A stretch of DNA of 64,000 bases from an uncultured Eubacterium sp. (GTDB lineage Bacteria; Bacillota; Clostridia; Lachnospirales; Lachnospiraceae), in the NCBI GenBank assembly GCA_964620885.1, contig CAZUKR010000002.1, positions 3,621-67,620 on the forward strand, in the 5' to 3' direction. Under the pieces are notes generated by a model that worked only from the letters and a program-made list of their open reading frames with translations, did no database searches and was not told the origin of the DNA. The translations under genes were made by a program, and so were the position numbers. Positions 7,061 through 57,066 of the stretch are shown one piece after another. The stretch's first letter is position 1; each line of letters starts with the position of its first letter.

Positions 7061-7100
7061 AAAGAACTTATTACAATGTACTGTAATAGGTTCTTTTTTT
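7061..7100 (+). terminator. Rho-independent terminator of rpsF-ssb-rpsR
   Basis: AAGAACTTATTACA / TGTAATAGGTTCTT stem plus T-tract. Confidence 0.85.
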
Positions 7101-7170
7101 ATATTATAGGAAAGACCATGTTACACATAAAGTATGAAAGTTTGTAATTTCCTAAAATATAAAACGCTCC
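7097..7170. repeat. Repeat family A, truncated copy (AT-rich inverted-repeat hairpin module only)
   Basis: Near-identical to 23918-23983 (ATTATAGGAAAGACCATGTT...TTTCCTA..ATATAAAACGCTCC); breaks off right after ACGCTCC. Confidence 0.85.
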
Positions 7171-7247: not shown

Positions 7248-7712
7248 ATGACAAAATATTATAGTTCTACATATTATATAAATGTATATTTGGATAGAGA
7301 ACAGTCCGGACCTCCGGTCATGGTGCATCTGGTATTATATATTGGAGCCATGGAAGAAGAGAGAATGTTTTATATATTGGAAAAAAAAATTCGAGAATAT
7401 CTGCAAAAAATTCAGAATGCGTGTCTGCCGGAGTACCCTGAATTTCATCAGAGGGAAATCACATTAGAAATTTTAGGAGAGTTTTTCTATAAAAAGCTGA
7501 AAGAGGTATTAGAATCTGGGGGAGTTGAGTTGTACCAGCTGGAAATTTACACCACCCCAACCCGCAGATATAAGGTTTCAGACAGATTACTGCTGCCATT
7601 CCAGTATCCGGGGGATGTGGTGAAGCGTATTGCACATATCCAGGAATGGAGTCAGCGTCTATATTCAGCGGGCAAGGAGGAAGTATATGAAAAACCACAT
7701 GAAATGGATTAA
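7248..7712 (+). CDS. Degenerate QueD/6-pyruvoyl-tetrahydropterin synthase-like (T-fold) protein
   Basis: ITLEILGEFF and LEIYTTPTRRY align with NPTLENCCEHF and IEIKETPTRAY of the paralog at 12384; lacks the His ligands. Confidence 0.6.
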   Translation: MTKYYSSTYYINVYLDREQSGPPVMVHLVLYIGAMEEERMFYILEKKIREYLQKIQNACLPEYPEFHQREITLEILGEFFYKKLKEVLESGGVELYQLEIYTTPTRRYKVSDRLLLPFQYPGDVVKRIAHIQEWSQRLYSAGKEEVYEKPHEMD

Positions 7713-9375
7713 AAAAGTGGGAGTTATTCTTATGGGTATTGTGATGTTTGGCAGCATAATACCGGTTTATGCAGCGCCAGACTGGAATGAGATTACTACT
7801 GTAGAAACAGAATCTGCTTATGCTAATATACAGAGGATGCAGTGTGCTTATGATGAAGAAAATCTATATCTTCATATTGCAGGCGGGGCGTCCGAGGCAG
7901 AGGACTTGCTGCCACAGCTTCAACTGATTATAAATCAAAAGCCACTGGAGGGAGATCTTGGTAATTTGCTCCTTGTCTGCGATAGTATTGAAGACGGAGA
8001 GAACCCCTTGTCTGTGCAGGACAGGCAGTTGAGAGAATTAGGAGCTCAGGGAACCCTGAACAGAAGTGATGGAATAAATGACATAGATATTGCCATTCCC
8101 TTTACAGCACTAGGATACGAATCAAAAGATATTTTGGATGTAACGGTGAATGCTCTTATAGATGGAAATAAAGAAGGGGAATGTGCGGGAGTATCCTTGA
8201 TACAGGAAACAGAACCCATAGAGATTCCGGAAGCAATAAGTGAACCGGAAGTTTCAGGAGAACCGGAGCAGGGGCAAATTGTTATGGATGGTCAGTTTTC
8301 TGACTGGAATGGCTACGATTTGACTTATGGCGGTGAAAGAGGTGTAGACAAGGTTTCTATGGTAAGCGACGGAACCAGCCTTTACATTAGAATCGTGGAA
8401 GATGGTAGTTATGACCAATGTTTTCCAAGAGAATCCACGCCAATGGGAATTACCTCCAATATGGGGAAAGTTTTATGGCTCGATGGCCAGATGCATGGAG
8501 AAGGGGAAGAGATGACATTAACCTTTCAGGGGATTGAAGGGGCCTATGCGGTATGCGGCAAGGTGGATGGCATTTATAACTGGGAAATAGAGGTTCCTTT
8601 ATCAGAGGTTTGGTCTGGAATTACGTATGTATCAGATATAAGCCTCATGTGGAAAAGTGAACATAAAACAATTCTTACCGTTCCCAACCCCTCCTATATT
8701 GACAGAGGAAATCCAGGCGGAGGTTTAGGAGTAGCTGCGGAAATTACCGTTGACGGATATTTTGAGGATTGGGACAGTATACCACACATGGAAATTACTT
8801 ATGACAACGAAAATGGTCCCAACAATCATATTGGTGCTCTTTATATGGGAGAGGACTATATGTATGTACACTATAAGATGAATCGTTTGTATACCTCATA
8901 TATGCGTATTCAGTATATGGAATTTAAAATAAATGGAAACAAATATACACTTGAGGTACTCCCTGTAGATGCCAATGGAAATATTGACTGGTCTGTTAAT
9001 ACGAATCACCTGCAAAATGGAATACACACCAATTTTGGTGTCTTTCTTACAGAGGTTTCCGGTGCAAGCCAGTATCGTAATAATTTAAATGGCCAGACTG
9101 CTCTGGTAATTTATGACAGCAGCCACCAGCGGGACACACTGGGGGATGAAGTGGAATTCTCCATAAGCTATGACAGAATCGAAGAGCTTACCGGAATAAA
9201 ACATTCTGAGATACGGAAAGTGGAGCTTTATAATCCCAATATCGGAGATGAATGGCTGGTGTGCGTGGGAACATCTTCCGGACCATTGCTGGGAGTTGGT
9301 ATTTCTATTACTGCTGCGGCCGGATTGTATTATGTATTAAGCAGAAAGAAAAGAAAGAAAGAGGACAGTATATGA
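7687..9375 (+). CDS. Secreted Firmicu-CTERM sorting-domain protein (predicted XrtG substrate)
   Basis: Signal peptide MKNHMKWIKKVGVILMGIVMFGSIIPVYA; C-terminal VGTSSGPLLGVG + TM + RKKRKK; repeated IxxDGxFxDW segments. Confidence 0.8.
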   Translation: MKNHMKWIKKVGVILMGIVMFGSIIPVYAAPDWNEITTVETESAYANIQRMQCAYDEENLYLHIAGGASEAEDLLPQLQLIINQKPLEGDLGNLLLVCDSIEDGENPLSVQDRQLRELGAQGTLNRSDGINDIDIAIPFTALGYESKDILDVTVNALIDGNKEGECAGVSLIQETEPIEIPEAISEPEVSGEPEQGQIVMDGQFSDWNGYDLTYGGERGVDKVSMVSDGTSLYIRIVEDGSYDQCFPRESTPMGITSNMGKVLWLDGQMHGEGEEMTLTFQGIEGAYAVCGKVDGIYNWEIEVPLSEVWSGITYVSDISLMWKSEHKTILTVPNPSYIDRGNPGGGLGVAAEITVDGYFEDWDSIPHMEITYDNENGPNNHIGALYMGEDYMYVHYKMNRLYTSYMRIQYMEFKINGNKYTLEVLPVDANGNIDWSVNTNHLQNGIHTNFGVFLTEVSGASQYRNNLNGQTALVIYDSSHQRDTLGDEVEFSISYDRIEELTGIKHSEIRKVELYNPNIGDEWLVCVGTSSGPLLGVGISITAAAGLYYVLSRKKRKKEDSI

Positions 9376-9965
9376 GTGTAGTAAAGATACTGGCGGTTCT
9401 GCTTTGGATTTATATTCTTTCCGCATTGAAACGCGGGAAGCTGGGCTTTTGGTATTTTATTACCGGAAGTGTGGGAATGTTTGTATTTTATATGATATTA
9501 CTACAGCCATTGCTGACAATTCCCTTGCAAAAGGCGGTGGCGGCAGTAGCAGGAATCCTGGGAAGTGCATCTGGAATGTTTGAATCTTACTTTCAGCAGG
9601 GAATACTGTTTGTGCCTTATGATACCGGAGCCATTTCATTATATATTGACTATGAGTGTTCGGGAATTATAGAAATAGGGGCCTACCTTTCTCTGCTGGT
9701 ATTTTTTCAGGTATATTCCAAACAGGAAAAATTAGTGCTTTCCATTATTGGAAGTCTTGGGATATTCTGTGCCAACGTTCTGCGGATTTTTATTATTGGA
9801 AGTCTCATTCATATCTGGGGAAGTTCGATTTATTTCGCCGCACATACCATTATTGGAAGAATGGTGTTTTATGGATTTACCATTGTGCTATATTTTTATG
9901 TATTTACCAGAGGGCAGATTAAGCGTCAGCGGATAGGAAAGTTTAATTATGACATTACTGATTGA
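9372..9965 (+). CDS. xrtG: Exosortase family protein XrtG
   Basis: Multi-TM; putative catalytic Cys (YECSG), Arg (NVLR), His (AHTIIGR); start overlaps the stop of the CTERM gene. Confidence 0.85.
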   Translation: MSVVKILAVLLWIYILSALKRGKLGFWYFITGSVGMFVFYMILLQPLLTIPLQKAVAAVAGILGSASGMFESYFQQGILFVPYDTGAISLYIDYECSGIIEIGAYLSLLVFFQVYSKQEKLVLSIIGSLGIFCANVLRIFIIGSLIHIWGSSIYFAAHTIIGRMVFYGFTIVLYFYVFTRGQIKRQRIGKFNYDITD

Positions 9966-11322
9966 TTTTTTCAGTTCATCCATTATATTTTGGATGGCAT
10001 GGGTAATTATACCGGTTGTAATGGAGATTATACCGGCTATAATGGACTTTGTGGTCTTATTGAAGCGTAAAGTCAGAAAAAAAGAATACAAAGAAATCAC
10101 TTATATGCCGGAAATCAGCCTGATTATACCGGTATATAATTCAGCGGAAAGTCTGGAGCGTTGTATAGAATCCGTATACCGTTCGGAATATGATTTGGAA
10201 AAAATCTATGTAATGCTGGTAGATAACGGAAGTAAGGATAACAGTTACGAAATTTTCTGCCGGTGCCGGGAAAAATTTGCGGAGTTATCCATGGTGTGGG
10301 AAACTTCTGCACAGGGTAAGTCCAAGGCATTAAACAAGGCATTATATAACAGCTCAGGAAAGTATATTATACATATTGACAGTGATGGTATGCTGCATCC
10401 ACAGGCATTGAAGAATATGGTGACCTTGTTTGAAAATGAACTGGATATCCATTGTGTGACGGGAACCGTCATCACCAACCCGGAAATGATAGATGATACC
10501 AAAGGGTTTTTTAAGCGCCAGTTTCGGAAGGCAGAGTTTTTTGAATACTGTCAGGCATTTCTGGCAGGACGTAATTTCCAGTCAGAGTTTAACAGCATTT
10601 TCACCTTGTCAGGGGCATTTTCTGCGTTTCGTAAATCTTCTATATTAAAGACACAGTTATATAATACAGAAACAGTGTGCGAAGATACTCATGTTACCTT
10701 TCAGATTCGTGAGAATCTGAAAAACAGGATTGTGATATGCGACAATGCTTTTTTCTTTGTGGATCCCATTGAGAGCCTGGACCAGCTGTACATTCAAAGA
10801 CAACGGTGGCAGCGGGGAGAAATGGAAGTTATTCATATGTTTTACAAAGACATGAAGGCTGTGAAAGGATTTATATCTAATTTTGTCATACGTATTATCA
10901 TATTTGACCATACCTTTGCATTTCCAAGAATGATTTGGTACTTTGCCTTGATTTGTCTTACCATGTTTAATTATCCCGTAAGACTGGTGGTAATGTCTCT
11001 TGGAATTATATATGCCTTGTATATGGTAAGTTCCTTTTTATTTTATATTAGTATTTCTATGTTTTTATCTAAATATAAGGACCTAAAAAAGTACTATATG
11101 CGGAAATGGTACCATATCCTGTTTCACCCGCTGTTTAATTTCATGACATTCTGGTTTCGCTTTGCGGGAATTATCAATTCAATCAGGGGGGACCAGAGCT
11201 GGAAGACAAGAACATTCAAGGAAGAATATCAAGTATTTCGTAAAATTGTAAAAAAAGATTTTGGCTGGTTTTTTAGGGGACTGGAAAGATTACGGAAAGC
11301 AGTAAATGTTTCCGAGGAATAA
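9949..11322 (+). CDS. Processive GT2 glycosyltransferase, exosortase G-associated type
   Basis: VDNGS, HIDSD (DxD), CEDT, QRQRW (QxxRW) motifs; N- and C-terminal TMs. Confidence 0.85.
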   Translation: MTLLIDFFSSSIIFWMAWVIIPVVMEIIPAIMDFVVLLKRKVRKKEYKEITYMPEISLIIPVYNSAESLERCIESVYRSEYDLEKIYVMLVDNGSKDNSYEIFCRCREKFAELSMVWETSAQGKSKALNKALYNSSGKYIIHIDSDGMLHPQALKNMVTLFENELDIHCVTGTVITNPEMIDDTKGFFKRQFRKAEFFEYCQAFLAGRNFQSEFNSIFTLSGAFSAFRKSSILKTQLYNTETVCEDTHVTFQIRENLKNRIVICDNAFFFVDPIESLDQLYIQRQRWQRGEMEVIHMFYKDMKAVKGFISNFVIRIIIFDHTFAFPRMIWYFALICLTMFNYPVRLVVMSLGIIYALYMVSSFLFYISISMFLSKYKDLKKYYMRKWYHILFHPLFNFMTFWFRFAGIINSIRGDQSWKTRTFKEEYQVFRKIVKKDFGWFFRGLERLRKAVNVSEE

Positions 11323-11334
11323 TTGGAGTAAAAG

Positions 11335-12378
11335 ATGAAGAGAACAAGACATATTGTTGTAGTAATATCCATGGCGCTATTGCTGATATTAGAAGCTGTA
11401 TTTATGGTCTATGGTTTTAAAAAGATAGAGGATGACTATGTGAATATATATCTGGAGCAGAAGGAGGAATATCTGGCACAGATAAATCTGCATCTGGAAT
11501 ATATGTTGGAGCAGGGAGGGCAGCAGCAGGAACTGGTGCGTTATATATCAGAGTATGTACCAGTGTCCGGCAGCTACTATGCGTGGCTTATCAGAGATGA
11601 ATCTGTAATTTTTGCTAAAAATGAAACGGTAACGGCATCTTTGGGAGAAACTCAGGCCTGGCCGGTATTTCAGGAGGCAATTGACGCCCGGGAAACCTGC
11701 AGTGTTTCAGCAGAATTTTCATATGAAGAAGAAAACTATATTACCGGAATTGTTATCGACCGGAATTATATTTTAAAGGATAAAAATCTACAGAAATTTA
11801 AGATGTATAACAGTGTGAGTCTGTCTGTTCTGGGATTGCTGATGTTTTCTGCAATGGCGTTGTATATACAGAGATTCTGGAAGGAAAAGAAAAGAAATAT
11901 TCTTATAGAGGGAGAGCTTCAGAATAAGAATAGTACGCTGAATGAAATGCATGAGGACGTGGTAAGGCTGAACCAGAAAATACGAAAACAGAAACGAAAT
12001 CCAGAGGGAAGGAAAAGCTATGATTTGCAGATGGCGAAAAAGCTTCTGGAGAAGTCTGAAAGGGCGGGAATCTGGCCGATGTATTACGCTGTGTTTCAAT
12101 TGCGGATGTATGAAGGGCAGTATTATGGAAAGCAGCAGATTATGGACGTTATAGAGCAGATATCTCTGGATGAACGCCATATTCTCATGGAAATTCAAAA
12201 GGGATGCTTTCTGGTATTTTTCTACCGGACAAAAGAGGAGGAGATGGAAGAGATTTTAGAAGATGTGAGAGAAAAATGGAAATCTACAAAAATAAAAATA
12301 AAAATTTATTCCGGATCGGTCCATCCCAATCAGCCGGAACGTGAATGGCTGGATGAATTTTTAGAAAGAAAGGAGTGA
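11335..12378 (+). CDS. Membrane protein: TM, extracellular domain, TM, coiled coil, small cytoplasmic alpha/beta domain (possibly degenerate GGDEF)
   Basis: Hydropathy pattern and operon position; no intact GG(D/E)EF motif. Confidence 0.55.
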   Translation: MKRTRHIVVVISMALLLILEAVFMVYGFKKIEDDYVNIYLEQKEEYLAQINLHLEYMLEQGGQQQELVRYISEYVPVSGSYYAWLIRDESVIFAKNETVTASLGETQAWPVFQEAIDARETCSVSAEFSYEEENYITGIVIDRNYILKDKNLQKFKMYNSVSLSVLGLLMFSAMALYIQRFWKEKKRNILIEGELQNKNSTLNEMHEDVVRLNQKIRKQKRNPEGRKSYDLQMAKKLLEKSERAGIWPMYYAVFQLRMYEGQYYGKQQIMDVIEQISLDERHILMEIQKGCFLVFFYRTKEEEMEEILEDVREKWKSTKIKIKIYSGSVHPNQPEREWLDEFLERKE

Positions 12379-12383
12379 AATGC

Positions 12384-12836
12384 ATGAAGTACAGACAGTA
12401 TACCTTTACGTTCTACTTAAATACCAGTCATGCAATTTATATTAATGGAAAACGAGGGCAGATACATCCTCATACCTGGGAAATCACCCTTCATTTACTG
12501 TATATGCAGGAGAATTTCATTGCCTTTCATAAGCTGGAAGAACGGATTGAGGAATATATGGCCAAATATCAGGATATATGTCTCAATGATATGGAGCCTT
12601 TTAATCGGATAAATCCTACCTTGGAAAACTGTTGTGAACATTTTAAAAATGAATTGAAAGATATTCTGAATGAGGAAGGATGGCTTTTGCTAATGATAGA
12701 GATTAAGGAGACACCAACCCGGGCATATGTGATAAACCTTTTAGACGAAGATGGGACAGAAGATGAGCAGTTTCTGGAGGCCTTTTCTAATGAATTATTG
12801 ACTCGCATTGCTCAGGGGAAGAGCATAGATGAATAA
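12384..12836 (+). CDS. QueD/6-pyruvoyl-tetrahydropterin synthase-related protein
   Basis: SHAI...IHPHTW (three His), NPTLEN, IEIKETPT. Confidence 0.8.
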   Translation: MKYRQYTFTFYLNTSHAIYINGKRGQIHPHTWEITLHLLYMQENFIAFHKLEERIEEYMAKYQDICLNDMEPFNRINPTLENCCEHFKNELKDILNEEGWLLLMIEIKETPTRAYVINLLDEDGTEDEQFLEAFSNELLTRIAQGKSIDE

Positions 12837-13881
12837 TTTACAAGATGTGAAAATTATTATTCCGGTGCTGAACCCGAATGAAAATTTTTTAAAATTATTA
12901 GATGAATTAAAAAACCAGGGGTTTGAGCCGCCCATAGTGGTAAACGATGGAAGCAGCTCTGAAAGCTGCGGCTATTTTCAAACGGCACAGGAAGAGTATG
13001 GATGTATTGTTTTGGAACACGAGGAAAATAAGGGAAAAGGCTGTGCATTGAAAACAGCTTTTTCCTATATTTTAAGCGAAAACAAATACAAATATGTGGT
13101 GACCATTGATGCGGATGGGCAGCATGAGCCAGAGGATGTGTTGGCATGTGTTATTGCGGCACGGGAAGCTGAAAACAGTAGAAAAGTGATGTTTGGATGT
13201 CGGAATTTTAATGAACCACAGGTACCTGCAAAGAGCAGAATAGGAAATAAAAGCATGTGTATATTAATGCGTTTCGCCTGTGGAATGAACTTGTCTGATA
13301 CCCAGACCGGACTGCGGGTATTTCCGGTAGAATATTTACCGTGGTTGGTAGAAGTTGAAGGAGAACGGTTTGAGTACGAGACCAATGTGCTTATTTTTAT
13401 GCAGGGAAAAGAAATTCCCTATGGAGAAGTCAGTGTGAGAACGGTATATATGGAAGAGAACAAGTCTTCCCATTTCCGTCCCATAACGGATTCTCTTATT
13501 ATTATCCGCCCATTTTTAAAGTTTCTTGTATCATCATTTAGTTCTTCTCTGGTAGATTTAGCTGTTTTTACACTTTTGTTTTATCTGCTGCGGGGATTCC
13601 CGGAACGTGAGGTTATCTGGGGAGCCACCATAGCGGCAAGAGCTTTATCGGCATGCTTCAATTACCTGCTAAACCGTCACAAAGTGTTTGAACAGGGAAG
13701 CGGAAAGTCACCGATGAAATATATTGCGCTGTGTATTTTACAGATGTGTATGTCGGCAGCACTGGTAAGTGCCGTATTTAGAATTGTGGGAGTGGGAGCA
13801 GTTGGAATTAAGATTGTAGTAGATATAAGTTTATTTTTTGTTAGTTATCAGATACAGCGGGAATGGGTATTTTCAAAATAA
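12829..13881 (+). CDS. GT2 polyprenyl-phosphate glycosyltransferase fused to a GtrA-like flippase domain
   Basis: VVNDGSS, NKGKG, TIDADGQH, DTQTGLR; C-terminal 4-TM GtrA pattern (FNYLLNRHKVF, YQIQREWVF). Confidence 0.85.
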   Translation: MNNLQDVKIIIPVLNPNENFLKLLDELKNQGFEPPIVVNDGSSSESCGYFQTAQEEYGCIVLEHEENKGKGCALKTAFSYILSENKYKYVVTIDADGQHEPEDVLACVIAAREAENSRKVMFGCRNFNEPQVPAKSRIGNKSMCILMRFACGMNLSDTQTGLRVFPVEYLPWLVEVEGERFEYETNVLIFMQGKEIPYGEVSVRTVYMEENKSSHFRPITDSLIIIRPFLKFLVSSFSSSLVDLAVFTLLFYLLRGFPEREVIWGATIAARALSACFNYLLNRHKVFEQGSGKSPMKYIALCILQMCMSAALVSAVFRIVGVGAVGIKIVVDISLFFVSYQIQREWVFSK

Positions 13882-16421
13882 TGGAGGCGAGAAGAGTGTC
13901 GGAAAAGGGGATTAAAAGGAACAGTATTCGGATATATGGCATAATAGCAGGACTATTGCTCAGCGTATTGCTGGCAGTAGTGACGATTCTGGTGATTAAG
14001 AAGACAGGATTGTATCCCAAAGGATATGATACCATGTATCATATTTATAGAGGCGAATCTCTATTTCAGGCATGGAAGAATCAGGAATGGTACCCTCTGT
14101 ATGACCGGTATCTTTATAATGGAGTACAGCCATTGCGTTACTGGGCGCCGGTAACGGTATATATTTTGGCAGGCCTTCGGTTTTTAAGTGCTTCTATTTT
14201 GAATGCATATCTGCTGTTTATAGGTGTTTTGATTATATTATCAATGGCAGGATGGCTTCGGTTTGGATGGCATTATAAGCGTATTCCGCTGGCTATTTTT
14301 ACAGGTGTAATCTGGTTTTTTATGCCGGAGAATTTGAGGGTGTTTTTTGCCAGCGGCAACCTGCCCAGAGGACTTGTGGCGGCATTATTGCCCTGGTTCA
14401 TGTTTGCTGTAATGCGTTTTCTGGAGTATGGGAAAAGGCAAAAAGAAGAGCCGGAAAACCATAAATTGCGGAAAAAGCAGGCATGGGCATTTGGAGAAAT
14501 CGGGATTCAGACGGCACTTCTGGTACTGGCCCATTCCGGTCAGGGAAGTATTGTACTCCTGTGTACGCTGATATTTCTATTGATATATGGCATATCCCAG
14601 AAACAGGGCAAATCGGCCGGTCAGGTAGTGCTTGCGGTTCTTGGGGGATACGGACTTACTGGTTTATGGCTGTATCCATCCTTAAAGGGTGGCCTGGTCT
14701 CCATGGGTAATGACAGTGCTCAGGTAATGGAGGCAAGCTTTCAAAATATATGGGTTTCCATACAACCCTTTTTACGGTTAGAAAACCAGGATGTTATGTA
14801 TTTCGGACTGTCTGTACTGGTGTTGGCGGTGATGGGAATGTTTCTTGCATTCCGGGAGCAGAAGGCGGGTTTTCTGACGGGAATTCTGATTTTTTTAGGA
14901 ACCAGTCTTTCTGCCTACAAGATATTAATGAAGCTGCCATTTAGCGGAATTTTGTGGATGGAACGTTTTGTATCGGTAGCACTGATATTTGTGCTGATCT
15001 CCTTTATCCAATGGAAACGCCTGAAACCCTGGCTGACTGCTGTGGTATGTATATTGCTGGCAGCGGATACCATACCGTCCCTGCAGTTTATCTGGGCACA
15101 AAAGGAAGAATGGGTGGAGGATGCCCATGAGGAAATTGAAAATGATGCCAAGAGACTCCTGCTGGATGAAGCGAAAGCTGTTACGAATCAAAGAATAGCA
15201 GTTATGGATTTGAGTGCTTATACAGCATTTGCGCCTTATTATTTGTCGGGAGAAGAACCACAGGTATTGTGTACCTTTGGTGCCGCATGGCAGAGTGCCC
15301 ATACAGCATCCAATGTAGTAATGCTCAATACTGCCATATCAGAGGGGTATTATGATTATTTATTTGACCGGTGCCTGGAAATGGGAAATGATACGGTATA
15401 TGTGCTGGAGTCAGCCATGAAAAATGGACGGCAGGATATAGAACAGCTTACAGCGGCGGCAGAGCGTATGGGGTATCAGTGCGTTGCAGATAATGGGATA
15501 AATGTAATTTTTCACAGGGAAATAAAAGAAGGTTTTGGTACGGTTACAGACTATGAGGGAATTGCAATTGGGACATCGGCTCAATCCATAGCCTTACGTT
15601 ATCCTGTATTTCAGGAAACCACAGAATCCAATTTAAATCACTATACATTTGAAGATCTGGTCTCTTATCAGAAGATATATTTATCTGGTTTTTCTTATGA
15701 TGATAAGGAAGAAGCAGAGAGACTGGTGGAAAAACTTGCAGAAGCAGGATGTGAAATATATGTTGATATGGGAAACATTTCAGCGGAAAAATCTGGACTG
15801 TCCAGTTTTCTTGGATGCGAAACAGCATCTGTTATGCTGAAAGATTACTATCCGGAACTTACTTTTGAAGGAAGGATATATCAGACTGGAAAATTTACAG
15901 AAGAGAATAGTCAGTGGAATACCGTATATCTGGTAAATCCAGAGAAGCCAGATGGGACAGCGGTTTATAATAATCAGGAGCTTTGCTTTAGCAGTACCGC
16001 AGAAAATGAAAGAATACATATGCTGGCCTTTAATCTGGTTTATTATGGAATAAGTACCGGAGATGAGGAGGCTGGAATATTCCTGAATCAATACTTTGAG
16101 GCAGAACCGGGGATAACACCAACGCGGAGCGTAGTACCTGTGGATATTTCCTATTCTCCGGAGGGGATCGCAATAGAGACAGGGCAGGATAATGTAAACA
16201 CGGCATTGGCGTATCTGGACTCCTTTTCTATTGATAAGGAGGTAAGAGAAGAAAACCATCTTCTTGTGGTAGACAAAGGGGTAACCAAAATTCACTTTAC
16301 CTATCCCTACTTTATCCAGGGATTGCTTCTTACCGCAGGCGGAGGAGCATTTCTGCTGGCATATGGAATGTGGCTGTGCCGGAGAATGGACGGAAAAAAG
16401 AACTTTAACTTGCCGGACTAA
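13881..16421 (+). CDS. Large polytopic membrane protein of the PTPS-related/YfhO (GT-C-like) type
   Basis: First-loop GYDTMYH...WYPLYD...YNG motif, about 12 TMs, large soluble C-terminal domain, terminal TM; start could be the GTG at 13896. Confidence 0.7.
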   Translation: MEARRVSEKGIKRNSIRIYGIIAGLLLSVLLAVVTILVIKKTGLYPKGYDTMYHIYRGESLFQAWKNQEWYPLYDRYLYNGVQPLRYWAPVTVYILAGLRFLSASILNAYLLFIGVLIILSMAGWLRFGWHYKRIPLAIFTGVIWFFMPENLRVFFASGNLPRGLVAALLPWFMFAVMRFLEYGKRQKEEPENHKLRKKQAWAFGEIGIQTALLVLAHSGQGSIVLLCTLIFLLIYGISQKQGKSAGQVVLAVLGGYGLTGLWLYPSLKGGLVSMGNDSAQVMEASFQNIWVSIQPFLRLENQDVMYFGLSVLVLAVMGMFLAFREQKAGFLTGILIFLGTSLSAYKILMKLPFSGILWMERFVSVALIFVLISFIQWKRLKPWLTAVVCILLAADTIPSLQFIWAQKEEWVEDAHEEIENDAKRLLLDEAKAVTNQRIAVMDLSAYTAFAPYYLSGEEPQVLCTFGAAWQSAHTASNVVMLNTAISEGYYDYLFDRCLEMGNDTVYVLESAMKNGRQDIEQLTAAAERMGYQCVADNGINVIFHREIKEGFGTVTDYEGIAIGTSAQSIALRYPVFQETTESNLNHYTFEDLVSYQKIYLSGFSYDDKEEAERLVEKLAEAGCEIYVDMGNISAEKSGLSSFLGCETASVMLKDYYPELTFEGRIYQTGKFTEENSQWNTVYLVNPEKPDGTAVYNNQELCFSSTAENERIHMLAFNLVYYGISTGDEEAGIFLNQYFEAEPGITPTRSVVPVDISYSPEGIAIETGQDNVNTALAYLDSFSIDKEVREENHLLVVDKGVTKIHFTYPYFIQGLLLTAGGGAFLLAYGMWLCRRMDGKKNFNLPD

Positions 16422-23880: not shown

Positions 23881-23914
23881 AGAACCCCTTGTGCTCATGC
23901 ATAAGGGGGTTCTT
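23881..23914 (+). terminator. Terminator after mecA
   Basis: AGAACCCCTT / AAGGGGGTTCT stem. Confidence 0.75.
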
Positions 23915-24103
23915 ACATTATAGGAAAGACCATGTTGCACTAAAGTATGAAAGTGTGTAATTTCCTATAATATAAAACGCTCCGCGTAGGATGCACGCAC
24001 GCGCCAGAGGAAGAAGTCACAGAGGCGATGGCGCGCGGCGCAGCAAAGCGCCTTCTCCCTCAAGATTGAGGGCAGGGGAGCTGAGCGTGTCGAAGACACT
24101 TTG
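23909..24103. repeat. Repeat family A, full-length single copy (AT hairpin plus GC-rich multi-stem module)
   Basis: Colinear with the 40423-40880 units: ACGCTCCGC..GGATGCAC.C.CGCGCC...GGCGCGCGGCGCAGCAAAG...GTGTCGAAGACACTTTG. Confidence 0.85.
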
Positions 24104-24138
24104 TTCTATTAGCCGAAGGAAATACATAGGAGGACGTC

Positions 24139-39978: not shown

Positions 39979-40389
39979 ATGGCAGAAGAACACAAAATTT
40001 TCCAGTTAGAAATTATAACGCCTGACCGTGTTTTTTACGAAGGAGAAGCTTCTATGGTGGAATTTACATCTGTAAATGGAGAAATGGGAGTATATAAGAG
40101 CCATATTCCTCTTACTACCGTATTAGCCCCTGGAATCGTAACAATTACAGAGGCAGATGGAAAAAAAGAAGCGGCGATTCATGCAGGATTTGTTGAGGTT
40201 CTGCCAGAGAAGGTAACCTTTTTGGCAGAGATAGCAGAATGGCCGGAAGAAATTGATGTAGATCGTGCAGAGAAAGCCCGAAGCCGCGCTGAGGAACGAA
40301 TTCATAGCCATGCAACAGAAGTTGATGTGGCTCGTGCAGAAATTGCATTGAAAAAGGCATTGATTCGTATTGACATAAAAGGATTATAA
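39979..40389 (+). CDS. atpC: F1 subunit epsilon
   Basis: LEIITPDRVF, GFVEV, IDVDRAEKA. Confidence 0.95.
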   Translation: MAEEHKIFQLEIITPDRVFYEGEASMVEFTSVNGEMGVYKSHIPLTTVLAPGIVTITEADGKKEAAIHAGFVEVLPEKVTFLAEIAEWPEEIDVDRAEKARSRAEERIHSHATEVDVARAEIALKKALIRIDIKGL

Positions 40390-40396
40390 GATTTGA

Positions 40397-40427
40397 AAGA
40401 CTCTATCATGTGATGTGATAGGGTCTT
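40397..40427 (+). terminator. Terminator of the atp operon
   Basis: AAGACTCTATCA / TGATAGGGTCTT stem. Confidence 0.8.
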
Positions 40428-40880
40428 ATTTTATAGGAAAATTTCATTACCTTGAAATATAAAAGTAATGTGAATTCCTATAAAATAAGACGGCTCCGCA
40501 TGGGATGCACACGCGCGCCCAAGGAAGAGTGTCGCAAAAGCGACGGCGCGCGGCGCAGCAAAGTGGCTTCTCCGTCAAGGATAGTGGAAAGTGTAGCGTA
40601 GAGTGTCGAAGGCGCTTTGATTTTAAATTATAGGAAAATTTCTTATATAAAATAAGACGCTCCGCATGGGATGCACACGCGCGCCCGGGGAAGAGAGTCG
40701 CAAAAGCGACAGCGCGCGGCGCAGCAAAGTGGCTTTTCCTTCAAGGATAGTGGAAAGTGTGGAGTAGAGTGTCAAAGACACTTTGATTTTAAATTATATG
40801 AATTCCTATAAAATAAGACGCTCCGCATGGGATGCACACGCGCGCCTAGGGAGGAGTGTCGCAAAAGCGACAGCACTTTG
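40423..40880. repeat. Repeat family A tandem array: two full GC-rich units and one truncated unit, period about 160-166 bp
   Basis: Units start at TATAAAATAAGAC 40480, 40646 and 40807; preceded by a perfect 17-bp inverted repeat 40423-40439 / 40475-40491. Confidence 0.92.
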
Positions 40881-41003
40881 CGTAAAATATCATGGACAAA
40901 ATAAGGCGGTTGCAATATAATAGCATGGGCAGAAAGAGGAAATAGTTCATTATAGTAGTGTGCAGAGGTAAAAGTCTATGTTTTCATGATATAACGGAGG
41001 AAT

Positions 41004-41417
41004 GTGAAAATGAAAAAGAAAAAAATTATAATAGTAACACTAGTGGTTTTAGTAATTTTATTTTTTGTGGTAAGGGCAATTATTGGATTGTTTGCTTCTC
41101 AATATAATTCAAATGATATCAGTAATTATCCAAACATTACCATAGACAGAGGCAGTGAAAAGCAGTATGTCTGCGATTCTTCCGGATATAAGGTCTATAC
41201 GATTGAGTTGAGTGAAGTATATTTTAAAACGAAAGATGCTGAAACAATAGAGCTGTATGATGCATTAACAACGGGAAAAATAACGATTGAAGATATGACT
41301 AATGTATGTAAGCAACAGAAAAGAAGTGATGATATTAAGGTATATACAGGGGAAAATTATCAAATCATTTTTGAAGGGGATCAATGCCTAATAGCTCCGC
41401 TGGATTACCAAATATAA
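41004..41417 (+). CDS. Hypothetical membrane-anchored protein
   Basis: GGAGG RBS, basic N-terminus plus TM, no recognised motif. Confidence 0.7.
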   Translation: MKMKKKKIIIVTLVVLVILFFVVRAIIGLFASQYNSNDISNYPNITIDRGSEKQYVCDSSGYKVYTIELSEVYFKTKDAETIELYDALTTGKITIEDMTNVCKQQKRSDDIKVYTGENYQIIFEGDQCLIAPLDYQI

Positions 41418-48524: not shown

Positions 48525-48786
48525 TGTATTTGTTTTCATGCACAGGTTGTATTTTGTGGAAAACCGTGATACGATAAACTTGGTACGTGGATAGAAGACT
48601 CTTACCACAAACCTTAACAATAAAAGCAGACCAGACCAAGAAGGAGAACCTGAAGGGAAAGGTGCAGATATATAGTGGAAACCGGCAGAAGAATTCTGGC
48701 GGTGCAGATTGTATAAATATGCCCTGTGCCTTTTTGGTACAGGGATTTCTTTGTTTTATTATCAGAAAGCCTTGTTACGTTAAAGT

Positions 48787-49872
48787 ATGAAAGAGGAGGT
48801 GAGAGCGGAAACAGCCGCTTTGTATATGATATTGCAATTAATAGATAAGCTGGAGCAGCAGCATTACCTTACCAAAGAAGAATGGACAGCCCTCATTGAA
48901 GGCCGAAACCAGGAAATAGCCGCCTATTTATTTGAAAAGGCAAGATACTGGCAGCACAAATATTTTGGGAATAAAGTCTATACAAGAGGGTTAATTGAGT
49001 TTACTAATTATTGTAAAAATGACTGCTATTACTGCGGAATCCGCAGGAGCAACCAGAATGCCCAAAGATATCGTCTCACTCAGGAGCAGATATTGGAATG
49101 CTGCGGCATTGGACATGAACTTGGATTTAGAACCTTTGTATTGCAGGGGGGAGAAGACGGATGGTTTACTCAGGATAAGCTGGAGCACATTGTAAGAGAG
49201 ATAAAAGAGAAATATTCAGACTGTGCCCTGACCCTCTCCATGGGTGAACGGAGCACTGAGAGTTATAAAAGACTTTTTGAAGCAGGAGCAGACCGTTATC
49301 TGCTGCGGCATGAAACAGCAGACAGCCGGCATTACCAGAAACTTCATCCTGCCGAACTTACCGCTGAAAAAAGGCAGCAGTGCCTGAAAGAGCTGAAAGA
49401 AATCGGTTATCAGACGGGAACCGGATTTATGGTAGGCAGTCCCGGACAGACACCGGAACAGCTTGCAGAAGATATGATGTTTATTCATGAACTGCAGCCC
49501 CACATGGTAGGGATAGGTCCCTTTGTTCCCCATCATGAGACACCCTTTGGAGCAGAGCTGGGAGGAACCGTAGAACTGACCTTGTTTATGATTGGTTTGC
49601 TGCGGGTTATGCAGCCCAAACTACTATTGCCATCCACCACGGCTCTCGGAACCATCGACCCTCTGGGGAGAGAAAAAGGAATACAGGCAGGGGCCAATGT
49701 AGTAATGCCCAATCTGTCCCCTACTTCTGTACGAAAGAAATATGAACTGTATGATAATAAAATCTGTACAGGGGATGAGGCGGCGGAATGCCGTGTGTGC
49801 TTAAACCGCCGGATGGAAGGTATAGGATATGAACTGGTAACGAACCGGGGAGATTATCCAGATGGTATTTAG
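48787..49872 (+). CDS. hydE: [FeFe]-hydrogenase H-cluster maturase HydE (radical SAM)
   Basis: RGLIEFTNYCKNDCYYCGIR, YLLRHET, GIGPFVPH, YELYDNKIC. Confidence 0.9.
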   Translation: MKEEVRAETAALYMILQLIDKLEQQHYLTKEEWTALIEGRNQEIAAYLFEKARYWQHKYFGNKVYTRGLIEFTNYCKNDCYYCGIRRSNQNAQRYRLTQEQILECCGIGHELGFRTFVLQGGEDGWFTQDKLEHIVREIKEKYSDCALTLSMGERSTESYKRLFEAGADRYLLRHETADSRHYQKLHPAELTAEKRQQCLKELKEIGYQTGTGFMVGSPGQTPEQLAEDMMFIHELQPHMVGIGPFVPHHETPFGAELGGTVELTLFMIGLLRVMQPKLLLPSTTALGTIDPLGREKGIQAGANVVMPNLSPTSVRKKYELYDNKICTGDEAAECRVCLNRRMEGIGYELVTNRGDYPDGI

Positions 49873-52939: not shown

Positions 52940-54823
52940 ATGCAGGAAATTAACGAAAAAGAGATACGGCAATTTTATGAAGAATACAGGGAAATGATAC
53001 GCAGACAGGAACACTACGAGGGCCTCCTGTATTTTATATATATGAAACCAGAGCAGAAGGAGAAATGGTTTTGTCTTTTAAAAGAAAAGTCTGAATTTCA
53101 GAGAAAGGCTTTTAGAGAAAATGAAAGACATATTGCCAGAGTAATTCTTCCTTTTTTGCATGAGAATGAAGGTCATAAGGAATTTTCAGAAGAAATCGCA
53201 GGTGTTTTTTTAGACGAAATTATAAAAATGGCACAGAGCATGACTTTTGACAATCTCCTTACAGTTGAAATGCTTAAAAAGCTTGTGGTGTATTATGAAG
53301 ATAAAAATAATCTGGATAATCAGATTTTAAGCTGTTTTTATCTGGGATATTTTTATGGCCATATGAATAATCCCGAGTTACGGCAAGAAGTATATCAGTG
53401 CTATCTGAAAGTAGCATCTTATCGGGAACAATATGAAGAAATCAAGGGGCCGATGGCCAGAAGAGCTGTATTGTCGGCGCTTTTCAATTGTTCCAACTGG
53501 GACAGAGAAGATGAAAAGGAATACAGTTCCACTCATTTGTTTCATTTATTGGACGCATATGATTTTTATGAAAAGGAAAAAAAGGAAGAGCGTTCCAGTG
53601 GAAACTTTGATTTTGCCAGAATACAGATACTTATACAAGATGAAATCTGTATGGAATTATTGAAGCCGGGAAGAGAGATATTTAACGAGCGAATCGCAAA
53701 AATAGAAGAAGAATATTATCGGCAGGTAGAAGTCTATAGGAAGAAACGCAGGCTGTCGGCATATGAATATTACAATTATTGGAAGTATCAAAAGCTTCAG
53801 GGAAAAATAACAGAGAAAGAATATTATGAGAAGCTATATGAATATTATAGGGAAGAGCCGTGGCAGAAGCTGGAAGATGAAGTAGGATATAGCTATAATT
53901 ATAACAACCTGATACAGATGATGCCACTGTTTTTGCCGGAGCTGTTTGAAGGGGCGGAGAAGTTTCAATTCAAATGGAATAATAAACTGAAAAAAGATGT
54001 AACGTGGTATTATACCAGCTTTCCCCGAACCGGAAACAAAGCCTACATAGATCGTATTATTGTAAATGAAATGATGGATTTGTTATCTCATTACAATAGT
54101 CTGGAAGCATTGGAACTGTATGAGCATATAATGCTGGTACGACAGGGAAGCACGGAGATTCATGTACGTGGAGTAGCAAAGCTGGTAAAAGAGATTGCCG
54201 AAGCAATTATAAAAAGAAAACCGGAATATGTAGTGGGAATGCTGGGAACCGAAACACCTGAACAAGTGGTAGAACATAGGGATGAAATACTGCAATTGTT
54301 ACATCAGGGGGCATTGCAGCATGACCGTGGTAAATTATTTATAAGTACCACGGTGAGTATGCAGGTACGGAAGTTGACCGATCAGGAATTTGAGAACATA
54401 AAAAAGCACCCCGAATATGGGCTGTATGGAAGAGAGCAGTATCAGGGGCTGAAAAAATATGCCAATGTAATTCTGGGACATCATAAATATTATAATGGGC
54501 AGGGAGGTTATCCGGAAAACTTTGATAATCAGGCATGTATGGATAAATTTGCCATAGATTTAATTACAATATGTGATTGTCTGGATGCTGCAACGGATAC
54601 ATTGGGAAGAAATTATATGAAGGGCAAGGATGTCGCTACTGTTCTGGATGAAATGAATGCAGGAAAGGGCGTGAGATACTCGCCGGAAATCGTAGATTTT
54701 ATTATGGATGACGAAGACATAATAAAAAAATTGGTGGAAATTACCAGTGAAGGACGTAAAGATACATATTATGAGGTATATCATAAATTTGCAAAAGAAA
54801 AGAGGAGGAACAGTCCTCTGTAG
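52940..54823 (+). CDS. HD-GYP-type phosphohydrolase with large helical N-terminal region
   Basis: STEIHVRGV, LQHDRGK, KKHPEYG, GHHKYYNGQGGYP, ICDCLDA. Confidence 0.85.
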   Translation: MQEINEKEIRQFYEEYREMIRRQEHYEGLLYFIYMKPEQKEKWFCLLKEKSEFQRKAFRENERHIARVILPFLHENEGHKEFSEEIAGVFLDEIIKMAQSMTFDNLLTVEMLKKLVVYYEDKNNLDNQILSCFYLGYFYGHMNNPELRQEVYQCYLKVASYREQYEEIKGPMARRAVLSALFNCSNWDREDEKEYSSTHLFHLLDAYDFYEKEKKEERSSGNFDFARIQILIQDEICMELLKPGREIFNERIAKIEEEYYRQVEVYRKKRRLSAYEYYNYWKYQKLQGKITEKEYYEKLYEYYREEPWQKLEDEVGYSYNYNNLIQMMPLFLPELFEGAEKFQFKWNNKLKKDVTWYYTSFPRTGNKAYIDRIIVNEMMDLLSHYNSLEALELYEHIMLVRQGSTEIHVRGVAKLVKEIAEAIIKRKPEYVVGMLGTETPEQVVEHRDEILQLLHQGALQHDRGKLFISTTVSMQVRKLTDQEFENIKKHPEYGLYGREQYQGLKKYANVILGHHKYYNGQGGYPENFDNQACMDKFAIDLITICDCLDAATDTLGRNYMKGKDVATVLDEMNAGKGVRYSPEIVDFIMDDEDIIKKLVEITSEGRKDTYYEVYHKFAKEKRRNSPL

Positions 54824-54858
54824 GTCAGTGGGAAGCAGACCTGCAGAGGATTGTTTTA
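54811..54858 (+). terminator. Terminator overlapping the HD-GYP stop codon
   Basis: CAGTCCTCTGTAGGTC / GACCTGCAGAGGATTG stem plus T-tract. Confidence 0.75.
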
Positions 54859-54927
54859 TATTGTAGGATACCAGGGGCAAATGGGCAGGGTGCATAAGGA
54901 AGCAATTACCCAACACTAAAATAACGA
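54853..54927. repeat. Possible degenerate family A hairpin module
   Basis: GTTTTATATTGTAGGA matches the family A left arm at 15/16; right arm degenerate. Confidence 0.35.
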
Positions 54928-55011
54928 GATAGACAGCCAACAGACGAATGTATAAGCCAATTAAATAAAGGGAGATCAGACAGTGTATTGATTGAATTGG
55001 AGGGCAAAATT

Positions 55012-55194
55012 ATGCCAAAAAGAGAGCGAAATTTGCGGTTGCATATCATGGTTACTCATGAGGAATGCGCCGCCATACAGGAACGCATGGCCGAAGTGAA
55101 CAGCCAAAATCAAAGCGCATTTATTCGCAAAATGTGCAAGTGTGTGTACACTTGCCCTGCTTGCCGTATAGCGGAACACCGCAAGAACGCATAA
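55012..55194 (+). pseudogene. Truncated relaxosome accessory protein (MobC-like)
   Basis: MPKRERNLRLHIMVTHEECAAIQERM...SAFIRKM, then unrelated sequence. Confidence 0.65.
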
Positions 55195-55281
55195 TAACGT
55201 CATGCTTGATGTTTTCGACAACTCGAAATATAATATTGGTATTGCGATAATAATGAAAGCAATCGTTATTGAGGTGAGCGT

Positions 55282-56007
55282 ATGAAAATAGACCGTCTAA
55301 TCGGTATTGTTACAATCCTGTTGCAAAAGGAAAAAGTCACAACATCACAATTAGCAGAGCGATTTGAGGTTTCACAAAGGACTATCCAGCGGGATATTGA
55401 TAATATATGTAAAGCTGGCATCCCTATTGTATCCATGCAAGGATATGGCGGAGGGCTTTCCATTGCAGAGGGTTACAAAATTGATAAAACAATACTGACA
55501 CAAAAAGAATTGAGTGCAATTTTTATGGGGCTCAAAAGCATAGATACTATTTCAAAATACAGTTATACTCAAAGCCTGATGGAAAAACTCACGAATGAAA
55601 AGAGCACTATCCTAGACGACCGAAATAGAGTTATTATTCATTTGGCTTCAATATTGTTCTGAAAAGGGAGAAAGCGAACGTATTATTGAGCCTTATTTTA
55701 TTATGTTTAGGTGGTTTGCATGGTACGTTTATGGATACTGTCTTGCCAAACAAGATTTTAGACTTTTCAAACTGAATCGTCTAAGTGAATTGCAAAATCT
55801 AAAAACAAGTTATGAGGAAAGATATATTTCAGAAAAAGAGCTTGATTTTGACAATTATATTTGGCGCGACGATATAAAGCTAGTAGCTATAACTACTTAC
55901 TACAATGGATACTAAGTTATGGTGATGCTGTAAAGGTCATAGAGCCACCCAATTTAGTTGATAGCATTCGCCAAAATGCAAAAAATGTATTAGCTCAATA
56001 TGAGTAA
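55282..56007 (+). pseudogene. YafY-like HTH-WYL transcriptional regulator, internally deleted and frameshifted
   Basis: MKIDRL...RFEVSQRTIQRDI...GGG, stop at 55662; WYL piece RIIEPY...WYVYGYC..RQDFRLFKLNR-like; C-terminal VKVIEPPNL piece in another frame. Confidence 0.8.
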
Positions 56008-56075
56008 TAGGACATACAGGTGCCGTGTTACTCATGCTATTCTAAAACTATCTAAAATCAAAGGAGGATTTTGTT

Positions 56076-56747
56076 ATGAAAAAAGAGGTTTCAATTTTTA
56101 ATAGGCCAGAGAAACTTGCTGGATATGAAATTGAGCAATATGTGACATATTGCGGCAACTTGTCTTGGTATGATTTTGTTACATCCATGCCACAATTGGT
56201 ATTTGTTGTTACAGGTTGGAAATCTAACGGCAAGGAAAACGCTTGCCTGCACTCTTGGTCTAGCTTTATGGGTAGTGGATTGGAAAACTTTATCTGTATA
56301 TTGGGAAAAGTCAATAAAGACGGGCATATGTATCAATCCTTGAGAGAAACGAAAGTATGCGTGTTGAATTTTCCCTCAAACGATATTTATGACCGATGTG
56401 TTAAAACGATTAGTAATAATCAGTTTGAAACAGATGAAATCACCGCTTCGGGTCTTACGGCAGAGAAAGCAGCAAAGGTCAATGCACCGCAAATCAAAGA
56501 GTGTTTTTTAAATATTGAGTGTGAGTATTTATGGGAACAGGAGCTTTTTGAGGGAAGCCAAGAAGTGGCGATTGCAGTGAGAGCCGTTAATATTTGCATG
56601 GATAGCAATTATTACGACCAAACTAAACTTGGCAGATACGGAAAAAATGGTTTTCTATTTTATGTTGACCAACCAACCAATCCGGAAACAGGAGAAATAA
56701 CACCTTTTGGCCCCGGAATATTGGAGCAGGGCGAACCTATTGAGTGA
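56076..56747 (+). CDS. Flavin reductase-like / flavoredoxin family protein
   Basis: VVTGWKSNGKENAC, VLNFP, VNAPQIKECFLNIEC. Confidence 0.8.
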   Translation: MKKEVSIFNRPEKLAGYEIEQYVTYCGNLSWYDFVTSMPQLVFVVTGWKSNGKENACLHSWSSFMGSGLENFICILGKVNKDGHMYQSLRETKVCVLNFPSNDIYDRCVKTISNNQFETDEITASGLTAEKAAKVNAPQIKECFLNIECEYLWEQELFEGSQEVAIAVRAVNICMDSNYYDQTKLGRYGKNGFLFYVDQPTNPETGEITPFGPGILEQGEPIE

Positions 56748-56788
56748 AATGCAAAATAAGCATTTGATTGTGAAAGGATTAAGTACCT

Positions 56789-56980
56789 ATGCCAAATAAC
56801 GAAGAATGGATACTATGTCCTGTATGCCAGAATAAAACGAGAGTAAAAATGCGGGACGATACGAAACTTGAAAACTTTCCGCTGTTCTGCCCGAAGTGCA
56901 AAAAAGAAACTCTTATCAATGTATTAAAACTGAATATAACGCCTATTACAGAGCCAGACGCTAAGACGCAGGGACACTAA
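56789..56980 (+). CDS. Cysteine-rich KTR domain protein
   Basis: WILCPVCQNKTR...FPLFCPKCKKETLI; typical of gut-Firmicute conjugative elements. Confidence 0.85.
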   Translation: MPNNEEWILCPVCQNKTRVKMRDDTKLENFPLFCPKCKKETLINVLKLNITPITEPDAKTQGH

Positions 56981-57066
56981 GACGTTGTGACGCAGAGCCG
57001 ATAATTAGTGAGTATACTCGCAATTATCGGCTTTTTGTATTTATCGGAACTTCGGGCCAAGTTGCA

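Follow-up and report, generated by a model that had tools for sequence, protein, structure and literature searches.

Directly after the terminator of rpsR, and at several further places in the 64-kb stretch of DNA analyzed here (the window), stands a palindromic repeat, and the question that it raises is what kind of element it is and why it is found at the ends of genes. The initial annotation had read this repeat, family A, as a terminator-targeting element whose copies mark or seed insertion hotspots. We found that family A is a multi-copy palindrome of ~70 bp with the consensus TTTTTTAT(A/T)TTATAGGAAAG-N33-CTTTCCTATAA(A/T)ATAAAAA, the outer ends of which are TTTTTAT[A/T] before TTATAGGAAAG and [A/T]ATAAAAA after CTTTCCTATAA, with a spacer of ~33 nt. 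Specifically, the 18-nt arm GTTTTATATTATAGGAAA had nine matches in the window (three mismatches or fewer) when 0.24 were expected, a number reached in 0 of 100 shuffles, and the matches pair as inverted repeats ~33 nt apart to give three full palindromes. Family A is not the whole unit but the left module of a composite, A+B, that was missed in the initial annotation. B is a structured unit of 100–145 nt, usually to the right of A and with its own terminator at its end; together the two modules form a non-coding unit of ~200 bp with no gene inside.

The three full copies in the window scored 56–70 bits (E 1e-10 to 1e-13) with a covariance model of A built from 31 copies. Copy 1 lies at 7095..7166 (+ strand, as do all copies, hairpins and B units given below), with 66.6 bits, an E value of 3e-12 and a DNA fold z-score of -4.2; it is followed by just a 6-nt stub of B, CGCTCC (7165-7170), and the XrtG locus begins at 7248. 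Copy 2 (23909..23979; 70.2 bits, E 4.5e-13) had a contig depth of ~31x its flank in DNA runs, and copy 3 (40422..40492; 55.9 bits, fold z-score -7.3) is a full palindrome with a divergent spacer, a variant that is single-copy by depth. In addition to these, two internally deleted A copies lie in a tandem array (40619-40654 and 40785-40820). A decayed A at 48745-48793 (20.3 bits), absent from the list of the initial annotation, follows the terminator hairpin (48722-48744) of a gene whose end lies near 48720 and consists of the left arm TTTTATTATCAGAAAG and the spacer CCTTGTTACGTTAAAGTATGAAAG without a right arm. A solo left arm, TTGTTTTATATTGTAGGATA, at 54851-54870 follows the terminator hairpin of the HD-domain gene (54814-54850). 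In other genomes, spacer-less mini-palindromes made of two A arms alone (e.g., TTTTATATCATAGGACAGCGCTCCTATGATATAAAAC) were observed at the mecA site (L058, L051, L063, L046, L053) and at the atpC site (L120, L137); L137 has an array of at least three, with mini-palindromes and B units in alternation.

The arms of A (18–20 bp, AT-rich, 93% paired) enclose the 33-bp spacer only, and B lies outside them. Folded as single-stranded DNA, the three full copies gave z-scores between -3.6 and -7.3. Compensatory changes maintain the self-complementarity of the palindrome, with 21 double-change cells in five pairs against 8 +/- 2.4 in shuffles, and its stem mismatches showed no bias of G.T (10) over A.C (9). 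Taken together, these two results point to a constraint that acts on the DNA, be it a foldback or a symmetric site for a protein, and not on an RNA stem. The + strand of the full copies outscored the - strand by 10–29 bits with the covariance model, and the spacer is thus asymmetric. We rejected A as an intrinsic terminator in its own right: a T-run precedes its stem and an A-run follows it on both strands, and the terminator is the host hairpin upstream. An invertible promoter was rejected as well, the orientation of the spacer relative to B never changing.

With regard to position, each A copy in the window starts 0–2 nt past a stable hairpin. The host hairpins are the intrinsic terminator of rpsR at 7061..7094 (dG -15.9 kcal/mol, ending at the T-run), that of mecA at 23881..23911 (dG -18.9 kcal/mol), also present in relatives whose site is empty, and that of atpC at 40397..40427 (terminator scan), found at the same position in the empty-site relatives L127, L129 and L126. 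The T-rich outer arm of A doubles as the U-tract of the host terminator. We extended the comparison to ~39 A copies from about 25 Lachnospiraceae genomes, and a hairpin of dG <= -8 kcal/mol ending no more than 6 nt from the T-run of the arm was present at 34 of 39 copies (87%) compared with 24–25% of random positions or other T-runs; the median hairpin dG was -17.5 at A copies and -6.2 in the controls. The hairpins that precede A are unrelated in sequence and hence belong to the host genes. The statement of the initial annotation that A sits directly 3' of a Rho-independent terminator therefore turned out to be both precise (0–2 nt) and general (87% of 39 copies vs. 24%). Its more specific observation, that the left arm adjoins the terminators of rpsR, mecA and atpC and, in degenerate form, that of the HD-domain gene, agrees with the hairpins found 0–2 nt before each. 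The gene identities (rpsR, MecA, AtpC, the HD domain and the XrtG locus) were checked and upheld.

Module B follows most A copies in other genomes, invariably on the same side and in the same orientation. In the window it is present as a single copy at 23978..24107 (delimited by alignments; depth 27–60x flank), which carries a 5' hairpin whose internal loop is rich in purines, then a CCCTCAAGATTGAGGG hairpin, its own terminator (24087-24099) and TTTGTTCT. A tandem array at 40491..40880 (Tandem Repeats Finder: period 166, 2.5 copies, 88% matches) is composed of B1 (40491-40619), the first deleted A (40619-40654), B2 (40655-40785), the second deleted A (40785-40820) and a truncated B3 (40821-40880), with terminators of the B units at 40599-40619 and 40765-40785 in the terminator scan. 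In this array, as in those of L029, L024, L055, L006 and L137, the next A comes after the terminator of the preceding B.

B is GC-rich and has a conserved start, (TT)ATGCGCA or GCTCCGC..GGATGC. The two helices of its 5' hairpin (domain 1) vary in sequence yet stay paired, with compensatory changes in 10 of 10 pairs among 20 sequences, and the conserved purine-rich internal loop reads (A/G)AGAGGAAA..TAT, then GGCGCAGCAAAGTG. A second hairpin, CCCCTCAAGATTGAGGGG, is optional, and the 3' end is a terminator-like hairpin followed by TTTGTTCT (terminator scan). The loop sequences and covarying stems are kept across genera in which MecA is only 55–75% identical. Such conservation exceeds that of a neutral MITE and suggests a function of B for the host or for the element, which counts against reading A+B as a mobile element. 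Rfam 15 at gathering scores gave no family match to A or B and no group II intron over the whole window, and at E<=10 over 40300-41000 and L029 1-520 only chance-level matches and again no group II intron; tRNA and tmRNA scans found none. We also considered B as coding and rejected this: although ATG, TTG or GTG often comes after the ribosome-binding-like AGAGGAAA, the frame shifts relative to the conserved blocks and the peptides are unrelated.

Comparison of filled and empty sites revealed where host sequence stops and resumes. At the atpC site, the three closest relatives (L127, L129 and L126; 85–87% AtpC identity) share the hairpin and the downstream promoter with the window but lack the element, the hairpin being followed by TTTT-CGTAAAA. 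In the window the site reads hairpin-TT[A-B-B-B']CACTTTG-CGTAAAATATC, the host sequence CGTAAAA being shared with the empty relatives. The native sigma-70-like promoter of the downstream gene (TGGACA-17-TATAAT, 40893..40921, + strand; promoter scan), conserved in these relatives, lies outside the element and marks the resumption of host sequence after the array. The mecA site is empty in nine more distant relatives (terminator-TTTT-CTACATAGGAGGA-ATG), filled with A/B variants in the window and in L054, L055, L083 and L057, and occupied by progressively decayed forms in L032, L031 and L030. The mecA copy seems to be a vertical inheritance whose decay took a different course in the window, L030, L031 and L032; this counts against the mobile-element reading. 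The same two terminators, of mecA and atpC, hold lineage-specific A/B variants in other genera; at atpC, L118, L119, L120 and L137 have their own variants and L134 has the left arm only.

Among near-identical copies in the assembled genome SUG1179, homology extends from the T-run at the foot of the hairpin to just after CCCACTTTGTTC. The initial annotation had suggested that empty and filled sites be compared for target duplications; none was definable at the junctions of the five near-identical SUG1179 copies or between filled and empty atpC and mecA sites, where only T residues are shared and the left boundary is hidden in the T-run. Presence/absence polymorphism between near-identical strains was likewise not seen in 12 metagenome runs (DNA or of undetermined type), and no contig skips the element, five RNA runs included. 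The runs thus offer no support for recent movement, a further point against the mobile-element reading. As a separate observation, the ribosome-binding site of a conserved GH18/SH3 gene lies within ~10 nt of the mecA terminator in L041, L047-L049, L060-L062 and L072 (TACATAGGAGGA-ATG). This spacing leaves no room for a promoter, and the gene seems to depend on read-through of the mecA 'terminator'.

An exact-pattern scan of one genome per species gave 29 loci, nearly all from Lachnospiraceae or related Clostridia and several from genomes with multiple matches, including six in SUG1179 and three in Candidatus Blautia faecipullorum; the covariance model added copies in these and in other fetched loci. 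In DNA metagenome runs that contain the organism of the window, assembler depth over A+B was 20–60x that of the flank, and contigs end there with many different flanks. In a related mouse-gut organism the depth jump over A+B was 60–200 fold, to which other species of the community may contribute. Within a genome, A copies had a mean identity of 0.84 and up to 0.99 (five of the six SUG1179 copies, 0.94–0.99), compared with 0.58–0.72 at the same orthologous site in different genomes. The element is carried by the G-rich strand in 32 of 34 loci (GC skew is positive throughout the window) and runs in the same direction as the upstream gene in 21/27 and as the downstream gene in 29/34. The downstream genes are functionally diverse (GntR regulators, ThiC/ThiG, ABC transporters, Amt, an ECF sigma factor and others), and on this ground A+B was dismissed as a regulon. 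A phage origin was also rejected, since the sole match in viral contigs sits within a gene and is due to chance, and a plasmid search gave no match to the element. Exact-protein look-ups returned nothing for rpsR and the same strain only for atpC. Full-text literature searches turned up no description of A+B.

We consider it somewhat better than an even bet that A+B is a non-autonomous element that integrates at the junction of terminator hairpin and T-tract. A+B is a composite, non-coding, multi-copy repeat of Lachnospiraceae and related Clostridia, and with about the same, modest degree of confidence we propose that it is now or was recently mobile. The part of the initial annotation that spoke of terminator targeting, with copies arriving by insertion at terminators, gains from the empty atpC and mecA sites, from the likeness of copies within a genome and from arrays in which a new unit follows the element's own terminator. 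Anatomy, copy number, precise junctions, empty sites, within-genome similarity, orientation bias, arrays and decay forms were established directly; we infer that the element spread through targeted integration. Under this reading, integration would take place at the hairpin/T-tract junction in the direction of transcription and replication, and the target would be recognized by its structure and not by its sequence. By supplying its own T-run, the element would let the host terminator retain a U-tract, making the insertion nearly neutral, and its terminal terminator would offer a fresh target. A-B-A-B arrays may be expected because the terminator of each unit would create a new target. Later decay by internal deletion would leave solo arms, spacer-less palindromes and B stubs. 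As for the enzyme, a host tyrosine recombinase is a candidate because the A arms match the XerC half of dif; another would be a transposase that is specific for single strands and works on hairpins of the replication fork. None of ~45 copies has a transposase, integrase or reverse transcriptase gene next to it, and no arm pair or solo arm encloses a gene, as a parent insertion sequence would, in ~1.4 Mb of fetched loci.

A+B is one of the small intergenic repeats, with a terminator-directed placement, and its mechanism is one that we infer. Class C group II introns are retroelements of at least 700 nt with six ribozyme domains (I–VI, with a catalytic domain V) and usually a reverse-transcriptase gene. 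According to a published account (PMC4424553, citing Robart et al. 2007), class C (IIC) introns insert just after intrinsic terminators and less often at integron attC hairpins, recognizing a DNA hairpin motif and no long sequence. In behavior, A+B is closest to these introns, from which the terminator habit has so far mainly been known. Insertion right after terminator hairpins (for A+B, 87% vs. 24% in controls) and a fixed sense orientation are common to both. A+B, by contrast, measures ~200 bp, lacks ribozyme domains and a reverse transcriptase (neither an Rfam group II match nor a gene inside) and has a palindromic DNA module on its left.

BOX, RUP and SPRITE of Streptococcus pneumoniae are likewise non-coding repeats of small size that occur between genes in many copies; the number of middle units in the modular BOX varies, and SPRITE resembles a Rho-independent terminator and prefers the 3' ends of genes (PMC3184786). 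A+B resembles them in being small, multi-copy, intergenic and modular or terminator-like. No sequence relationship to them was seen, the internal module of A+B is conserved with covariation across genera, and hairpin abutment is not mentioned for these repeats in PMC3184786. The Correia element of Neisseria ends in inverted repeats, forms a long foldback, is present in tens to hundreds of copies and has promoter-like boxes and internal-deletion variants (PMC3184786), and A+B shares inverted repeats, foldback, many copies, promoter-like boxes and internally deleted decay forms with it. Unlike in Correia and other MITEs, the inverted repeats of A+B enclose only ~33 bp with the larger B outside, and neither a target duplication at the junctions compared nor a parent insertion sequence in the fetched loci was found. 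The target also differs, being a hairpin and T-tract structure for A+B and a TA dinucleotide for MITEs such as Correia.

REP sequences are GC-rich imperfect palindromes of ~35 bp that are marked by a conserved tetranucleotide on the 5' side and served by a tyrosine transposase gene of their own (RAYT family). Like A, REP and BIME are extragenic palindromes at the 3' ends of operons. A differs in its AT-rich arms of 18–20 bp with a sequence conserved across genera, and no RAYT-type gene was seen next to its copies. Some insertion sequences home to REP-type hairpins (PMC1525189). The strand bias of A+B (G-rich strand in 32/34) and the lack of a visible duplication can also be compared with IS200/IS605-derived palindrome elements; the bases before the T-run of A+B vary, belonging to unrelated hairpin ends. 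Those elements insert 3' of a fixed target of 4–5 nt without duplication and prefer one strand with respect to replication. At A+B copies, neither a TnpA nor a TnpB gene was seen. The dif site, for its part, is present once per chromosome near the replication terminus and has 28 bp, with two inward-facing 11-bp arms and a central region of 6–8 bp. An uninterrupted run of 13 bases in the arm of A and its adjacent bases matches Bacillota dif in its XerC arm and central region (PMC11040001, PMC3025954). A is multi-copy and follows gene terminators, and its half-sites face outward and are 33 bp apart; for this last reason A is not a dif site.

Other readings of the same data deserve consideration. 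A+B could be a host-functional module, in which the right arm of A (TATAAT/TATAAA, at 7–10 nt from the first base conserved in B, on its 5' side) would act as a promoter, the palindrome as an operator and B as a multi-copy small RNA or as a 5' leader/attenuator of the downstream gene; we regard this as rather unlikely. It would be in keeping with the covariation of B helices in all ten tested pairs, with the terminator at the end of B, with the coverage of A and B by RNA runs and with the prevalence of co-directional downstream genes (29/34). Moreover, CCCACTTTG in the long form could pair, judging from the sequence, with the upstream CAAAGTG or the adjacent AAGTGGG in the manner of an expression platform, and in L011, L025 and L001 a ribosome-binding site and start codon lie 20–60 nt after the element with no other promoter visible. 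Nonetheless, no -35 box stands at a fixed distance, the interval between the conserved motif of the spacer and the -10-like box is not constant (9–13 nt), and the palindrome would yield an identical promoter facing backward. Downstream genes are unrelated and some have a promoter of their own (40893-40921; L003), many copies are truncated or without B, and no Rfam family matches. The per-copy RNA depth, from crude contig depths, was ~0.05–0.3 of that of mecA mRNA and higher over A than over B, which argues against a promoter in the right arm. To account for placement, one would have to suppose that the copies are separate transcription units packed into short intergenic gaps and hence found after terminators, a supposition that we likewise hold to be doubtful; the hairpin abutment at 0–2 nt is left without explanation by it. 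Untargeted insertion followed by selection would instead make A+B an ordinary miniature inverted-repeat element in AT-rich DNA that survives only in the neutral space after terminators. Small bacterial repeats such as REP and SPRITE are in general intergenic and often located at gene 3' ends (PMC3184786), and old decayed copies are common here, both of which would fit. But selection would permit any intergenic position, and the left arm is 0–2 nt from the hairpin in most copies, with an orientation fixed relative to it; hairpins before other T-runs are no more common than at random positions (24%), and no TA-type or other duplication was found. We rate this explanation as very improbable.

A recombination site is a third possibility, one not far from the idea of the initial annotation, according to which the A arms would be binding sites of a Xer-like tyrosine recombinase and A a secondary attachment site where foreign DNA enters, at the borders of islands. 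The right arm and the next six bases, (G)ACTTTCCTATAATATAAA, have 13 contiguous bases (TTCCTATAATATA) in common with the XerC arm and central region of the Bacillota dif, ACTTCCTATAATATATATTATGTAAACT (PMC11040001); an example is found in the window at 23958-23977, where CTTTCCTATAA is followed by TATAAA. The pattern TTCCTATAA-N6-TTATRKRAA finds the dif sites of many Bacillota (loci L199-L317) as well as palindromes whose arms are exactly those of A (L212, L298), and the layout of A (central region|arm ... arm|central region) resembles hybrid attL/attR ends. Variable or decayed DNA follows three copies, namely the XrtG locus, orphan genes and MobC/WYL fragments. Even so, we deem this reading very unlikely. 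The likeness to dif was noticed post hoc and is a match of sequence, the outward-facing half-sites 33 bp apart leave no 28-bp dif-like core, and no integrase gene adjoins any copy. The proposal that copies mark or seed insertion hotspots is not supported. Against both ideas, gene order around mecA is conserved in more than 50 relatives, whether they carry the element or not; at atpC the array gives way at once to the native promoter, and the region downstream varies in element-less relatives too. Truncation points differ between copies (after ACGCTCC, after the spacer, after the left arm) and fall at varying points within B or A, not at the arm/central-region boundary, which looks like decay by deletion rather than site-specific exchange. 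At best, a subset of copies lies at the left edge of accessory DNA, a position that the initial annotation described as frequent; what comes after the mecA copy is a gene conserved in all relatives. A simpler reading is that terminators and synteny breaks both occur at the ends of operons. Also improbable, in our estimate, is a more specific version of targeted integration, in which A+B would be a DNA-only homing element whose folded palindrome, with its XerC-dif-like arms, is offered to a host tyrosine recombinase on single-stranded DNA of the replication fork, the covarying B hairpin acting as cofactor or second recognition module. If true, both class C group II introns and the folded attachment site of the CTX phage would have a DNA-only counterpart in this element.

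Lachnospiraceae are among the most abundant gut bacteria. A repeat present at tens of copies per genome breaks short-read assemblies at the ends of operons; knowing it explains such contig breaks and aids intergenic annotation. Each unit adds a terminator, and possibly a promoter-like box, between genes and could thereby insulate or rewire operon boundaries. If terminator structure is what is recognized, integration of A+B at terminators would represent a second, independent solution for 'safe-harbour' insertion after that of class C group II introns. The dif-like arms offer a concrete, testable way into the mechanism by which the element moves. Structure-directed integration beside terminators could also serve the engineering of poorly tractable Lachnospiraceae.

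Several further observations concern the surroundings of the copies and the individual modules. The XrtG locus occupies 7248-16421 of the window, between rpsR and the gdpP-like/dnaB genes, and its GC content is not atypical. It encodes a protein with a Firmicu-CTERM sorting domain (7630-9375), XrtG (9252-9965), the XrtG-associated glycosyltransferase TIGR03111 (9949-11322) and two proteins related to 6-pyruvoyl-tetrahydropterin synthase. Decayed mobile DNA extends over 54988-57000 after the solo left arm and includes a truncated MobC-like frame (MPKRERNLRLHIMVT...), an HTH_11/WYL-type regulator in three frames (55282-56007) and a small cysteine-rich frame (56789-56980). Two genomes of another phylum (L212, L298) have a dif-like palindrome, CTTTCCTATAATATACATTATAGGAAA, made of exactly the A arms. 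With regard to promoters of the housekeeping or sporulation sigma factors, A was rejected as a candidate, given that no -35 stands at a fixed spacing and that the sigma-E, F, G, H and K consensus sequences did not fit by eye.

The terminal hairpin of B in the window (24087-24099, 40605-40615) contains TGTCGAA, the Spo0A-box heptamer; the match is probably coincidental, other genomes having GTGGGCTTGCCCAC in its place. The 3' domain of B (CCCCTCATGAATGAGGGG..GGGAGCTGAGAGTGTCGAAGACAC and a T-run) occurs alone, without A or the 5' hairpin, in L318 (2209-2273; MT835478.1) and in three other fecal 'Bacteriophage sp.' contigs, near contig ends, where it appears to be a free-standing terminator module. 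In another run of the same strain, L111 (1241-1701, compared with 40389-41004 of the window) has one B unit fewer in the atpC array, a difference that may reflect genuine variation in copy number or an assembly in which the repeat collapsed.
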